From the UHGV virus genome UHGV-1789045: 12,500 bases of DNA; one strand, written 5' to 3'. The position numbers were made by a program, and so were the translations under genes. The stretch is from a virus. The notes beneath the pieces are model-generated. The model searched no databases. It saw nothing but the letters and a program-made list of their open reading frames with translations, and was not told where the DNA came from. Below, in pieces: positions 4,130 to 10,551 of the stretch (positions within the stretch are counted from its first letter, which is position 1; each line of letters opens with the position of its first letter).

Positions 4130-4429
4130 TCAAATAAGTGGTTTGCTGCCTAATTTCATTTTCTGGCGACCAACACAAGTCACACCCATTTCACTGCGTG
4201 GCTTGCGGTAGTAAATACGGTTCTGTTTACGCTCGACTTCTTCTGCCTTCTTGCAGCGAAGGCTTCCGAGTGATGCTGCTTTATCTGCTCTGACGCAACC
4301 AGAGAGCTTTAGCGCAATTTTTCGCGCCAGTCGCTGCTCTTGCATTGCCTGTTCACGTTGAGCCTGTCTGCGTGCTCTGCGGCGATTTCTGGCGTTATCG
4401 TCAGCCAGATATGTAATGACTACTGTCAT
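4130..4429 (-). CDS. N: N-type transcription antitermination protein
   Basis: 99-aa ORF with GGAGG RBS. N-terminal arginine-rich motif DNARNRRRARRQAQREQ, as in lambda N and P22 gp24, the boxB RNA-binding peptide. Located downstream of pL and nutL. Confidence 0.8.
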   Translation of the reverse strand: MTVVITYLADDNARNRRRARRQAQREQAMQEQRLARKIALKLSGCVRADKAASLGSLRCKKAEEVERKQNRIYYRKPRSEMGVTCVGRQKMKLGSKPLI

Positions 4430-4535: not shown

Positions 4536-4579
4536 TTCCCGCATTTCGGCGGGACAATCCCATCAATGTTAAAGAGCCT
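4536..4579 (-). promoter_or_regulatory. nutL (boxA + boxB) N-utilisation site
   Basis: On the minus strand, boxA GGCTCTTTAACA (plus coordinates 4568-4579), then boxB hairpin CCCGCCGAAATGCGGG (4538-4553). The boxB 16-mer is identical to the one in nutR at 6235-6250. Confidence 0.75.
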
Positions 4580-6207: not shown

Positions 6208-6252
6208 CGCTCTTTAACAGTCATGGTCCTCATTCCCGCCGAAATGCGGGAA
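6208..6252 (+). promoter_or_regulatory. nutR (boxA + boxB) N-utilisation site
   Basis: boxA CGCTCTTTAACA (6208-6219), matching the lambda/rrn boxA consensus. boxB hairpin TTCCCGCCGAAATGCGGGAA (6233-6252). Lies between cro and cII as in lambda. Confidence 0.8.
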
Positions 6253-6309: not shown

Positions 6310-6588
6310 ATGCAACTTACAAGTACTCGCAAGAAAGCGAATGCAATTACAAGCAACATCCTGAATCGAATTGCTGTACGTGGTCAGCGAAAGGTTGCCG
6401 ACGCGTTAGGGATTAATGAATCGCAAATTTCGCGATGGAAAGACAGCTTCATCCCCAAAATGGGAATGCTTCTTGCTGTTCTTGAATGGGGTGTTGAAGA
6501 CGAGGAGTTGGCGGAACTGGCTAAGAAAGTAGCCAGAATGCTGACAAAAGAAAAAGCCCCGAAGAACGGCGAATTCTTCGAGGCCTGA
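6310..6588 (+). CDS. cII: CII transcriptional activator
   Basis: The track ORF begins at 6223. ATG 6310 (RBS AAGGAA) gives [79 protein letters not shown]..., which aligns with lambda CII (…[26 protein letters not shown]…). Confidence 0.85.
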
Positions 6589-6622
6589 TGTAGAAAGACT
6601 GGATCAATCCACAGGAGTCATT

Positions 6623-6769
6623 ATGACAAAACAACTCAGTCCTTACCAGGACAAAATTCACAAACACATACTACGTGATCGCTTCCTGTCCAGCTTCAAG
6701 CAGCCTGGTCGATTCCGGGCTGAGTTGGAAAAAGTGAAGCTGATGCAGAAGGAGAAAGGTCATGAGTAA
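6623..6769 (+). CDS. small hypothetical protein, 48 aa, between cII and O
   Basis: ATG 6623 with RBS AGGAGT 5 nt upstream. Translation [48 protein letters not shown]. Its 3' end overlaps the O start (6762) by 8 nt. Below the ORF-track size cutoff. Confidence 0.4.
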
Positions 6770-7622
6770 TCTTGCAACCGTAACACATTTAAGGCCTTCA
6801 CAACGGCCTGTGGAGCGTCGTGTGGCAGAAGTTGAAGATGGTTATACCCGTCTTGCAAATGCCCTGTATGAAGAGCTTATCGGCGCAGATTTAACGAAAA
6901 ATCAGAGCAAGGTTGCCCACGCCATATGCCGTAAAACATACGGCTACGGTAAAAAGATGGATCGCATCTCTGATAGTCAGTTAGCTCAAATTACCAGGCT
7001 GCCAAGACAGAAGGTAAACAAGGCCAAGAATGAGCTTATCGCGATGAAGGTTATCCTTCGCGAAGGCCAGCAAATCGGTCCTAACAAGAACATCGAAGAA
7101 TGGCAAATCGAAGGGTGTCACTACTCTGGTGATAATGTCACTACATTGGTGACAAAAAGTGTCACCAACACGGTGACAGCGCTGTCACCAAAACAGGGAC
7201 ACACAAAAGAAACTATTACAAAAGAAAAAAGAAATAATAAAAACACTATGTCCGAAAGTGTTCGGACGGAGTGTGAAAAATCACCTGACCGTCACGAAGA
7301 AATCGACAAGGCATTCGAGGAAATATTCTGGTGTGCAGGCATGCGGAAAGCCGGGAAGAAAAACGCAGCTTCGGCATTCAGAACACAGTTCAGGGAATGG
7401 CGTAAAACTACCAGGGGTACGGCAAGCGAGTTTGCCACGATGCTGGCAGAAGACATCGCATGCAGGAATGGTAAGCAGTTCGGATTCGACAGGTTGTTAC
7501 CATCGAGCTACCTGAACGGTCAACGCTGGAACGACGAGAAGCCAGAAACTATTCAACCACAATCCAAACCATCATCCGCAATCACCGTATCGAAAACTGG
7601 CTACGTGTTTTTCGACAGGTGA
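6762..7622 (+). CDS. O: replication initiator protein O (lambda-O-like N-domain, divergent C-domain)
   Basis: 286 aa. The N-terminal segment [75 protein letters not shown]...GPNKNIEEW parallels lambda O. The iteron origin is embedded in the linker-coding region. The C-terminal domain is not lambda-like. Confidence 0.9.
7113..7250. repeat. origin of replication: four GTCAC-type iterons followed by an A-rich tract, inside the O gene
   Basis: Iterons with internal dyads: ggTGTCACtactctgGTGAta, aTGTCACtacattgGTGACA, aGTGTCACcaacacgGTGACAg, gcTGTCACcaaaacagGGACAc (about 7113-7202). They are followed by aaaagaaactattacaaaagaaaaaagaaataataaaaac (about 7205-7245). This is the layout of lambda ori. 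Confidence 0.65.
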
Positions 7623-7625
7623 ACC

Positions 7626-7733
7626 ATGAAATCAAAAATCAAATCGCTACTGGTCGCTGGTTATAACCACGGCTGGTTAAGTATTTCGTTTGTCGATTTC
7701 TGGTTTAAAAATCTCAATCTGAGGGAATCATGA
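7626..7733 (+). CDS. small hypothetical protein, 35 aa, between O and the helicase gene
   Basis: ATG 7626, 3 nt after the O stop. Translation MKSKIKSLLVAGYNHGWLSISFVDFWFKNLNLRES. Its stop overlaps the helicase ATG. May be a real coupling ORF or just the helicase leader. Confidence 0.3.
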   Translation: MKSKIKSLLVAGYNHGWLSISFVDFWFKNLNLRES

Positions 7734-9610
7734 CGCCAAGTGAACTCAGCGACCTGCTTTGGTCGCAGGTTGACAGGGTGGCTCCGCACCTGTTGCCAAA
7801 CGGCAAGAAAGAGGGGCATGAGTGGGTTGCCGGTAACGTTAACGGTGACAAGGGAAACAGCCTTAAGGTCAACCTTAGCGGCAAGAAAAAATGGGCTGAT
7901 TTCGCTGAGGGAGACGGCGGTGACATGCTTGATTTGTGGATGTCATGTCGTGGAATTAATCTGCATCAGGCTATGCAGGAAGCGAAAGCATTTCTCGGTA
8001 TCAAGGATGACGATCACCATTTCGATGCCAAACGTGAGAAGAAATTCTCCAGACCTGATCGCAAGAAAATCGCCCGCTACGTTACCAGAACAGAATCCCA
8101 TCTTGAGTACCTGCAATCGCGTGGCATATCGCCAGAAATCGTAAAGCGCTACGAGGTTGTCAGCGGCAAGGTGTGGAATGGAGAGCGGGAACTGGATGCT
8201 CTGGTGATTCCGTACAAACGCGATGGTGAGTTGTTGCAGGTCAAGCGAATCAGCACTGAGCGCCCGGACGGGAAGAAAGTCATTATGGCAGAAGGTGATT
8301 GCGAACCTTGTCTGTTCGGATGGCAGGCTCTGGACGCTGGCGTGAGGGCGGTTGTACTTTGCGAAGGCGAAATTGATTGTATGAGCTATGCGCAATACGG
8401 CATCTCGGCGTTATCCGTGCCGTTTGGTGGAGGGAAAGGCGCTAAGCAACAGTGGATTGAGTTTGAGTATCACAACCTCGACAGGTTTGAGGAAATATTC
8501 ATCTCGATGGACGTTGATGATGTTGGTCGTGAAGCCGCAAGGGAAATCGCAAGCCGACTCGGTGAACATCGTTGCCGTCTTGTTACTCTGCCGTACAAAG
8601 ACATCAACGAATGCCTGATGAACGGTGTTACCGAGGATGAAATCTGGCAGTACATCGGCACGGCATCCTACTTCGATCCTGAAGAACTCTACAGTGCGCG
8701 AGAGTTTTACCAGGACACTATCAACGCTTTCTACGGCAAGCAGCAGTATCTGTTTAATCCACCGTGGGAATCTCTGGCAGATAAATTCCAGTTCCGTGAG
8801 GCAGAGTTGACGCTGGTCAATGGTGTGAACGGTCACGGAAAAACGGAGGTTGTCGGGCATATGGCACTTGAGGCAATGCGTCAGGGTGTGAAGACGTGCA
8901 TCGCGTCACTTGAGCTGAAGCCAGGCATTCTCCTTAAGCGACTTACCCGTCAGGCAACGTGCTGCAAGATGCCGCCAGTGCTGGAAATTGACTCTGCATT
9001 TAAATTTTATGACGAAAGACTTTGGGTGTTTGGCCTGACCGGAACGGCGAAAGCCGACAGGCTGATCGAAATATTCGACTACGCTCGCCGCCGATACGGG
9101 ATCCAGTTATTCATCATCGACAGCCTGATGAAATGTGGCATAGGCGACGATGACTATAACGGGCAGAAGGCGTTTGTTGACTCGATTTGCGACTTCAAAA
9201 ACAAAACAAACTCCCACGTCATTCTCGTTACTCACTCGCGAAAAGGAGACAGCGAAGAAAAACCAACCGGGAAAATGGACGTAAAAGGCTCTGGAGCGAT
9301 AACAGACCTGACAGACAACCTTTTCATCATCTGGCGTAACAAGGCTCGCGAGAGAGCGTTACAGAGAGTTCAGAGTGGTGAAAAGATGTCAGAGAAGGAC
9401 GAACAGCTACTGGCATCTCCGGCATCTGTTTTGATGCTTGAAAAACAACGTAACGGCGAAGGTTGGGAAGGTGGTGTCCCGTTGTTCCTTGACGAGCAAT
9501 CGCACCAGTTCCTGCAACTTGAATCAGGATCGCCATATAGCTACATCGCCAATATGCCGAAATCGGAATATGACGAGGCGTGGCGACAGGAAAACGTGAC
9601 GGAGTATTAA
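7730..9610 (+). CDS. bifunctional Toprim primase / RecA-fold (DnaB- or gp4-like) replicative helicase
   Basis: 626 aa. Toprim motifs VVLCEGEIDCMS and ISMDVDDVGREAA. Walker A LVNGVNGHGKTE, Walker B QLFIIDSLMK, and ILVTHSRKG. Takes the place of lambda P downstream of O. Confidence 0.85.
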   Translation: MTPSELSDLLWSQVDRVAPHLLPNGKKEGHEWVAGNVNGDKGNSLKVNLSGKKKWADFAEGDGGDMLDLWMSCRGINLHQAMQEAKAFLGIKDDDHHFDAKREKKFSRPDRKKIARYVTRTESHLEYLQSRGISPEIVKRYEVVSGKVWNGERELDALVIPYKRDGELLQVKRISTERPDGKKVIMAEGDCEPCLFGWQALDAGVRAVVLCEGEIDCMSYAQYGISALSVPFGGGKGAKQQWIEFEYHNLDRFEEIFISMDVDDVGREAAREIASRLGEHRCRLVTLPYKDINECLMNGVTEDEIWQYIGTASYFDPEELYSAREFYQDTINAFYGKQQYLFNPPWESLADKFQFREAELTLVNGVNGHGKTEVVGHMALEAMRQGVKTCIASLELKPGILLKRLTRQATCCKMPPVLEIDSAFKFYDERLWVFGLTGTAKADRLIEIFDYARRRYGIQLFIIDSLMKCGIGDDDYNGQKAFVDSICDFKNKTNSHVILVTHSRKGDSEEKPTGKMDVKGSGAITDLTDNLFIIWRNKARERALQRVQSGEKMSEKDEQLLASPASVLMLEKQRNGEGWEGGVPLFLDEQSHQFLQLESGSPYSYIANMPKSEYDEAWRQENVTEY

Positions 9611-9640
9611 ATGACCATCTACATCACTGAGCCAATAACA

Positions 9641-9670
9641 GGCCTGCTGGTAATCGCAGGCCTTTTTATT
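9641..9670 (+). terminator. intrinsic terminator after the replication genes (tR2-like)
   Basis: GGCCTGC-tggtaatc-GCAGGCC hairpin (9641-9647 / 9656-9662) followed directly by TTTTTATTT. Confidence 0.55.
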
Positions 9671-9699
9671 TGGGGGAGAGTAATTGGAGGCTTTAAGAA

Positions 9700-9915
9700 A
9701 TGAGTACGATAGCTGAGCTTGTCAGGGCTAATTTTCGTGAAGAGTTGGTGCGTTGGTATCGGTATCGTTCATCGTCCAGTTTGCCGATTGATGAGTTGTA
9801 TGAGCATTCACCTGCTGCACGACGCTATCCGCGTGACCGTGTTCTTCGACGGTTGTCCAAACTCAACAATGAGTTTCAGCGCAACAGAATTATTCGGAGT
9901 CTGGATTTAAAGTAA
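9700..9915 (+). CDS. hypothetical basic protein, 71 aa
   Basis: ORF with GGAGG 7 nt upstream of ATG 9700. Arg-rich (RRYPRDRVLRRL...RNRIIR). No family recognised. Confidence 0.5.
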   Translation: MSTIAELVRANFREELVRWYRYRSSSSLPIDELYEHSPAARRYPRDRVLRRLSKLNNEFQRNRIIRSLDLK

Positions 9916-9925
9916 AGGAGTGAGC

Positions 9926-10132
9926 ATGACAAATCAGCAGCAAATAGAGTTCATCCTTGAGCAGATTAGAAAAATGCGAGAAAAGAACCAGCCAGACATG
10001 ATGGAAATATGGAGACGCCAGCAGGAAGAATACCGCAAGCATATTTTTGGTGAGAGAAAACAGGATGACTGGAGCCTATATGGCTATGGCACCAGGACAA
10101 ATAAAAACGGATATAGCCTTTACACATATTGA
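9926..10132 (+). CDS. hypothetical protein, 68 aa
   Basis: The track starts at GTG 9920. ATG 9926 has AAGGAG 5 nt upstream. Product MTNQQQIEFILEQIRKMREKNQPDMMEIWRRQQEEYRKHIFGERKQDDWSLYGYGTRTNKNGYSLYTY. Confidence 0.5.
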   Translation: MTNQQQIEFILEQIRKMREKNQPDMMEIWRRQQEEYRKHIFGERKQDDWSLYGYGTRTNKNGYSLYTY

Positions 10133-10140
10133 GGAATTCC

Positions 10141-10551
10141 ATGAAACAGACAATTTTCCTCAGGAGTAAGCAACAACAGCAAGCCGCAATCACCGCCATC
10201 CTCGCAACACCACTCGATAAAGACAAGCCAGTTACCATCCGCATTACTGACTACAAGCGCAACCTTGACCAGAACGCAAAATTTCACGCGATGCTGGCGG
10301 ATATCGCAAGTCAGGTTCAATGGTGCGGCAAATGGTTAAAACCAGAACAATGGAAGGTTTTGTTGATAAGCGGTCATGCAGTGGCAACAAAGCAGGAAGC
10401 TGATGTTTTGCCCGGCCTTGAAGGCGAATACGTCAACATTCGCGAAAGCAGCGCGCAGATGAGCGTGAAGCGTATGGCAAGTCTGATCGAGTACACAACA
10501 GCATGGGCTATTGGTCAGGGTGTCAGATTTACCGACAGGAGGTACGAATGA
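10141..10551 (+). CDS. ninB: NinB (Orf-family recombination mediator)
   Basis: The track begins at TTG 10129. ATG 10141 (RBS GAGG) gives [21 protein letters not shown]...[36 protein letters not shown]..., collinear with lambda NinB (…RNRSLDQNRKLWACLGDVSRQVEWHGRWLDAESWKCVF…). Confidence 0.85.

Follow-up and report, generated by a model that had tools for sequence, protein, structure and literature searches.

The small gene ninA and the terminator tR2 have been present in the literature on phages lambda and P22 since the early 1980s. In lambda, ninA (orf26) lies over tR2 between ren and ninB, with its start on the stop of the upstream gene and its stop on the start of the downstream gene. In reviews, ninA counts as one of the non-essential nin genes of lambda and P22, and the nin region is portrayed as an ATGA-linked 'chain of interlinked genes'; in nin5, the segment ren-ninA-ninI is deleted. 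How translation of ninA affects tR2 was determined in 2016 by Li et al. (NAR 2016, PMC4824070), with constructs in which two reporters flank tR2 and the natural lambda sequence 5' of it. The NinA initiation site was 'not weak' in these lambda constructs, and the authors also cited the lambda ribosome profiling of Liu et al. 2013 for NinA translation (PMC4824070). Silencing the NinA RBS or AUG changed the efficiency of tR2 by only ~10%, since 30 nt are too few for a ribosome that has just initiated to catch up with the polymerase (PMC4824070). Termination was almost fully repressed when the upstream stop codon was a few bp from tR2, and its efficiency was maximal (about 0.9) once this stop was ~30 bp away (PMC4824070). 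Transcripts terminated at tR2 carry a stop-less NinA message; expression of the upstream reporter was halved, which the authors attribute to trans-translation, and it was restored when the NinA RBS or AUG was silenced (PMC4824070). The ninA-over-tR2 arrangement was therefore already known, having been described decades ago and tested experimentally.

We analysed a stretch of 12,500 nucleotides from the virus genome UHGV-1789045, hereafter the window, which is the immunity and early region of a lambdoid phage or prophage. Its leftward genes include an N-like antiterminator and a CI-type repressor, and the rightward order is cro-like, CII-like, O-like, a 626-aa primase-helicase, the ninA cassette, DUF7301, a 68-aa ORF (ORF68) for which no Pfam family was found, NinB and further nin genes (Table 1). 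Matches to individual phage records extend over half of the window at most, and the best of them (HZ41, mEpX2, HK620) are mosaic. The nutR- and nutL-like sites carry an identical 18-nt boxB hairpin. The nutR-like site would be the loading site for an antitermination complex reading through tR2, and in the window phage unmodified polymerase would be terminated at tR2 unless overridden by N. The strongest terminator-like hairpin of the window lies elsewhere, on the minus strand at 6554-6586 (14 pairs and a T-run), at the 3' end of the cII-like gene and at the position of the lambda oop RNA terminator.

Table 1. Coordinates of the features discussed, numbered from the first nucleotide of the window.
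Feature	Position	Strand	Description
N-like antitermination protein gene	4133-4429	-	99 aa; phrog_271, E = 4.8e-37
nutL-like site	4537-4578	-	boxA-like GGCTCTTTA (4578-4570), boxB (4554-4537)
nutR-like site	6208-6251	+	boxA CGCTCTTTA (6208-6216), boxB hairpin TCCCGCCGAAATGCGGGA (6234-6251)
Toprim/DnaB-type primase-helicase gene	7730-9610	+	626 aa
Shine-Dalgarno core GGAG of ninA	9601-9604	+	6 nt 5' of the ninA ATG; within the 3' end of the primase-helicase gene
TAA stop of the primase-helicase gene	9608-9610	+	abuts the ninA ATG, 29 nt before the hairpin
ninA ORF	9611-9703	+	30 aa, MTIYITEPITGLLVIAGLFIWGRVIGGFKK; PHROG 5907; homologue of lambda/P22 NinA
Mosaic-boundary cassette	9611-9680	+	70 nt, ninA codons 1-23 including tR2; 68/70 identical to lambda
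tR2 stem-loop	9640-9663	+	AGGCCTGC-TGGTAATC-GCAGGCCT; 8-bp stem, 6 G-C pairs, 8-nt loop
tR2 U-tract	9664-9671	+	TTTTATTT, directly 3' of the stem-loop
GGAGG Shine-Dalgarno of the DUF7301 gene	9686-9690	+	inside the variable ninA tail
DUF7301 gene	9700-9915	+	71 aa; downstream of ninA, ATG overlaps the ninA TGA
68-aa ORF	9926-10132		between DUF7301 and NinB; phrog_18758 (unknown function), E = 4e-43
NinB gene	10129-10551		downstream of the 68-aa ORF

An earlier, sequence-only reading of this DNA had pointed to a 30-aa ORF on the plus strand that overlaps the ATG of the next gene and contains a terminator hairpin, and all of these elements, including the peptide sequence, were confirmed by the ORF list and the sequence. 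The ATG at 9611 opens 30 codons closed by a TGA at 9701-9703. On the upstream side, the TAA|ATG junction at 9608-9613 joins the end of the primase-helicase gene to the start of ninA; on the downstream side, the ninA TGA overlaps the ATG of the DUF7301 gene within an ATGA at 9700-9703. The ORF thus has the place of the first ORF of the nin region: it starts at the stop of the last gene of the replication module and ends at the next start. Its length alone is unremarkable, the chance level being 38 ORFs of at least 25 aa within 2.3 kb, and it stands above chance because the 70-nt cassette starts exactly at its ATG, turns up in 421 phage records and invariably has a Shine-Dalgarno (SD) motif in front of it. 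Residues 1-26 of the peptide matched PHROG 5907 (function unknown) with E = 9.1e-16, and neither Pfam nor NCBIfam holds a model for the 30-aa peptide. The lambda cassette uses the same start codon. Judged by these matches, the 30-codon ORF is the lambdoid phage mini-gene ninA ('orf26') over lambda tR2.

The terminator itself was examined by comparison and by folding. The hairpin and U-tract of the window are identical to those of lambda (lambda 40,5xx-40,6xx). In the supplement of Li et al. (PMC4824070), the tR2 oligonucleotide contains this very hairpin, and primer W48-up2 mutates the same ninA ATG (AUG>AAG; …ggagttaaaagAAGaccatc). As in other intrinsic terminators, a U-tract comes immediately after a G+C-rich stem-loop on the transcribed strand, and its place in the operon, 3' of the replication genes and 5' of the nin genes, is that of tR2. 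Folded alone, the stem-loop has an energy of about -15 kcal/mol (-15.1); the local fold z-score is -2.1 and the site is among the two strongest terminator-like sites in the window. The fold of 9625-9685 contains the terminator hairpin only, extended by A/U pairing, and no competing antiterminator stem. Among the fetched cassette copies, most of the substitutions in the stem are C>T or A>G, by which the pairing is kept as G.U, with a single compensatory pair change in one copy (L138). On the identity of its sequence, this hairpin is the lambda terminator tR2. The terminator that the sequence-only reading had offered as one alternative is thus real; that reading had seen the hairpin and had not recognised the feature as lambda tR2/ninA. 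An Rfam search of 9300-10000 gave nothing relevant, with chance-level snoRNA and lncRNA matches only. A minus-strand role, as an antisense promoter or a bidirectional terminator, was considered and rejected, the lone nearby promoter-like match being at chance level.

BLAST matches of the cassette to phage records begin exactly at the ATG (9610/9611) and usually end at ~9680, just past the T-run, and the sequences on both sides of these 70 nt are unrelated between records. The cassette also occurs in 1982 of 5426 complete E. coli genomes (about 37%). It is therefore found very widely, and almost unchanged, where the replication module meets the nin module. Its annotation is uneven. The ORF is called 'ninA protein' in the P22 entry M10074 of the 1980s and ninA/NinA in the phi24B and PhiR12 records; the phage 434 record gives it as 'similar to lambda Orf26', with the terminator annotated inside the CDS, and the HK75 record annotates the terminator and not the ORF. 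Automatic pipelines either skip the ORF, as PGAP does in E. coli genomes, or misname it: in many NCBI records from E. coli, Salmonella and Shigella, a 32-aa NinA of the type found as gp56 in HK97 bears the name 'histone H1', an evident propagated annotation error. A scan of genome contigs returned mostly lambda DNA contamination in unrelated assemblies; the only genuine hosts that it added were Escherichia sp., E. albertii and Shimwellia. The contaminating contigs match lambda at 100% identity (L232, L235, L237, L238, L240-L244, L246, L247 and L252-L254); they were found in assemblies of Pseudomonas, Oceanobacillus, Bradyrhizobium, Psychrobacter, Pseudoxanthomonas, Shewanella, Nocardioides, Paenibacillus and Chromatium, some of them ~48.4-48.5 kb long at roughly 1x coverage, and are contamination by lambda DNA rather than an extension of the host range. 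The ninA cassettes of enterobacterial phages found in the bins of a Cellvibrionaceae MAG (L236) and a Bacillota MAG (L249) are probably the result of mis-binning.

Signals for translation were compared in ~270 cassette-bearing loci fetched from IMG/VR, GTDB genomes and annotated records, a sample that, like the other comparative samples used here, includes many near-identical prophage copies. The 30 nt 5' of the ATG fall into 7 non-homologous classes, corresponding to ren, two DnaB-type helicases, the primase-helicase, a 270-nt ORF and two others. In 7/7 of these classes an SD core begins at -10 to -14, with anti-SD duplex energies that are within the top 0.2-8% of window positions (combined p = 2.6e-7 over the 7 classes). 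On the other side lie about 15-22 different downstream genes, and in almost all cases the ninA stop is placed -14 to +6 nt from the next start, with an ATGA or GTGA overlap for 6 distinct downstream genes. Since SD motifs are found in all upstream classes and the stop/start junctions are kept, these sequence comparisons indicate that the places where ribosomes start and stop are under selection. For the window phage, the support for translation of ninA comes from the GGAG at -10 and the comparative SD test. As a named gene with a start site active in lambda and with SD motifs and stop/start overlaps kept across unrelated flanks, the ORF is more than a chance product of the hairpin.

These signals bear directly on the possibility that the terminator is the only real feature, with the hairpin, the U-tract and the downstream SD region being selected and the ORF an unselected by-product without a role of its own, whether or not it is translated. 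This explanation, already raised by the sequence-only reading, accounts poorly for an SD motif at the right spacing in every unrelated upstream context, for a stop/start juxtaposition kept across many unrelated downstream genes and for a ninA start site that is used in lambda constructs (PMC4824070). It is nevertheless consistent with the omission of the ORF by PGAP, with the weakness of the synonymous excess described below, and with lineages in which the ORF is broken and the hairpin kept. We consider it unlikely.

Such lineages were found repeatedly, and the event that the sequence-only reading had named as evidence against a conserved frame, a frame disruption with a kept hairpin, does occur. 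HK022-type phages (6/144 copies) carry a gene for a 203-aa HNH_3+AP2 endonuclease, inserted precisely after ninA codon ~11 and before the stem; it is seen in L020 (at 6334-7051), L008 from HK022, L009 from SH2026Stx1, L072, L091 and L119. The arrangement resembles that left by a homing-endonuclease-type element at a conserved target. These copies were initially taken for hairpins without an ORF and were then found to be ninA split by the HNH gene. The 5' ninA stub continues in them as a 34-aa hydrophobic ORF (HK022_56, MTIYITELIAGLSLLMVLTVYIIKYILYANKKTN), which is found on >1000 contigs. Other disruptions are smaller: a 1-nt deletion in codon 2 in one lineage (5/108 copies), two nonsense alleles (E7stop and W22stop), alleles with one additional T in the U-tracts of both hairpin types, and the L138 copy, where ninA reads on and is fused into the next gene. 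In the nearest relatives of the window, TW10590 (L274) and Bas106 (L003), an extra A relative to window positions 9680-9684 shifts the last 6-7 codons of ninA, so that the ninA stop lies 3 nt before the DUF7301 start instead of overlapping it in an ATGA; the SD motif of the DUF7301 gene is untouched by this indel. These disruptions imply that ninA is dispensable and its tail unconstrained. As ninA was lost without loss of the hairpin in several lineages, any benefit that it brings would be small.

We then considered the peptide itself. Residues 9-22 form a hydrophobic stretch (~14 residues) followed by R23 and K29/K30, and the best 15-aa Kyte-Doolittle window is 2.1. The sequence-only reading had proposed a single-TM membrane peptide, and NinA could be a functional small single-pass membrane peptide, with the terminator accommodated inside its coding sequence. 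Several observations are in keeping with this proposal. For both hairpin types, only 1/3 frames is both hydrophobic and open, and it is the frame that is used. After a shared MTIYITEL, three different sequences follow (the tR2 hairpin, the hairpin of the HK97 gp56 type and the AT-rich HK022 insert), and all three are read as 14-20 hydrophobic residues, then basic residues. Most NinA replacements are conservative (I/V/L/M). For each half of the cassette, substitutions were counted in loci retrieved through the other half, as a guard against ascertainment bias; a first synonymous/nonsynonymous count (p = 0.04) was discarded because its loci had been fetched with wobble-only patterns, and the signal was weaker on recount. 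Codons 2-7 gave 4/12 possible synonymous against 5/42 nonsynonymous changes, and codons 8-22 gave 14/74 against 19/196 (p = 0.059). The combined odds ratio was 2.4 (p = 0.014), individual partitions having p values of 0.06-0.2. The other two reading frames gave odds ratios in a similar range, so that the synonymous excess is weak evidence, and the constraint that these counts suggest on the peptide sequence is itself weak.

Clear purifying selection of the kind expected for a membrane peptide was thus not seen, and other observations speak against such a function. Non-conservative alleles are tolerated, among them I>N, G>E, A>P, F>S and, amid the hydrophobic residues at a position of the loop, L13Q (8 copies), as are the nonsense and frameshift alleles described above. 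The C-terminal tail differs with every downstream junction. The window copy carries L8P, its codon 8 (9632-9634) being CCA where the other examined copies have Leu or Ile codons (CTA/CTT/CTG/TTA/TTG/ATA), and the exact window peptide was absent from a collection of 15 billion proteins. Transcripts terminated at tR2 would yield only a truncated, stop-less product. Furthermore, no phenotype is known for NinA and the whole nin region is dispensable. A functional membrane peptide therefore appears quite unlikely, and the hydrophobic peptide is probably mostly a by-product.

The position of the terminator within the ORF suggests another way in which ninA could matter. The expected 3' end of terminated transcripts lies ~30 nt before the ninA stop codon, so that they carry a stop-less ninA. 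In the window, with the U-tract ending at 9671 and the stop codon at 9701-9703, this geometry is compatible with a non-stop decay device, in which stop-less tR2 transcripts would recruit tmRNA and decay faster, so that without antitermination less cII and replication-gene product would be expressed. The halving of upstream reporter expression with an active NinA start, and its restoration on silencing, would be explained in this way; the effect was, however, seen on a plasmid reporter only (PMC4824070), and lineages without an intact ninA persist. We regard a dedicated non-stop decay function as very unlikely. More generally, the conservation of the ORF over the terminator for its own sake, either for deliberate non-stop decay or for a functional hydrophobic membrane NinA of 24-34 aa, seems to us rather improbable, and even taken together a peptide function and a deliberate non-stop decay role have a low probability. 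If the ORF were kept for its own sake, terminator and coding sequence would be co-optimised in a single 70-nt cassette shuffled among lambdoid phages.

We also weighed the proposal of the sequence-only reading that translation of the ORF could modulate termination, here taken as an attenuator-like control in which ninA translation melts or blocks the hairpin and sets the level of transcription past tR2. The ORF spans the whole terminator, and tR2 is strongly repressed by a ribosome that stops within a few bp of it (PMC4824070). The direct test in lambda nevertheless goes against this proposal, since silencing the NinA RBS or AUG had an effect of only ~10% on termination (PMC4824070). The AUG, 29 nt from the stem, is also too near for a new ribosome to catch the polymerase, the fold contains no alternative antiterminator hairpin, and the phage has a dedicated N/nut antitermination system. 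Such a control is thus highly improbable.

Taken together, these results lead us to propose that ninA is, with good probability, a short translated linker cistron spanning the N-antiterminated terminator tR2. The main functional element would be tR2 (9640-9671), which would stop unmodified RNA polymerase after the replication genes, polymerase modified by N at nutR reading through it. Whichever genes flank it, ninA begins at the upstream stop and ends on the downstream start; ribosomes on antiterminated transcripts would thereby be handed across the terminator without an untranslated gap, as these junctions on both sides suggest. This handing-over would fit the published 'chain of interlinked genes' picture of the nin region. 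The distance from the upstream stop to the tR2 stem in the window is 29 nt, compared with the ~30 bp at which full efficiency was reached (PMC4824070), and this spacer would keep the ribosome of the upstream gene too far off to suppress the hairpin. A ribosome initiating at the ninA AUG would not catch the polymerase within 30 nt, so that ninA translation would barely affect termination, and tmRNA would be expected to deal with the stop-less ninA transcripts that end at tR2. The roles in coupling and spacing, and the N-dependence in the window phage, are what we infer from these elements. As a counterpoint to coupling, downstream genes have SD motifs of their own (the GGAGG at 9686-9690 in the window). 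N-modified polymerase is resistant to Rho in any case, so that a translated chain without gaps is less needed. With these reservations on coupling, ninA offers a clean example of an ORF conserved for the places where ribosomes start and stop, not for its encoded product. As a discovery, ninA/tR2 carries little weight; the comparison is still of some use.

Compared with lambda, the window has a Toprim/DnaB-type primase-helicase gene in place of ren upstream and a DUF7301 gene in place of ninB downstream; its peptide ends in ...GRVIGGFKK (30 aa), that of lambda in ...GRGKS (26 aa), and the window also carries L8P. PhiR12 NinA is 30 aa long and 28/30 identical to the peptide of the window, from which it differs at L8 and V9, with the same DUF7301-type gene downstream. 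P22 (M10074) has the same core in a 26-aa form ending on ninB. The upstream genes in phi24B, PhiR12 and P22 (ren, the 270-nt ORF and gene 12) differ from that of the window. The type represented by HK97 gp56 and HK544 gp48 shares with the tR2 type the N-terminus MTIYITELITG, the place after the helicase gene, an intrinsic terminator inside the ORF, and the length and frame from ACA to TGG. Its stem-loop is different (GGGGCTATT-TACAC-AGTAGCCC followed by T6), its hydrophobic core is GAIYTVALFYW, and its longer tail overlaps the next gene by 14 nt. NinA also resembles the type I toxin peptides (Ibs, ShoB, Ldr, Hok class), which are about 20-35 aa long with one hydrophobic helix. Unlike these toxins, it has no known toxicity and no evident antisense RNA partner, and its context is a translationally coupled operon. 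Finally, leader-peptide attenuators such as trpL and the pyrBI leader have, like ninA, a short translated ORF beside or over an intrinsic terminator on the same transcript. In attenuators, translation of the leader substantially changes termination, compared with ~10% for NinA in lambda (PMC4824070). ninA differs from them in having neither a competing antiterminator structure nor regulatory codons, read-through of its terminator being governed instead by N and nut.
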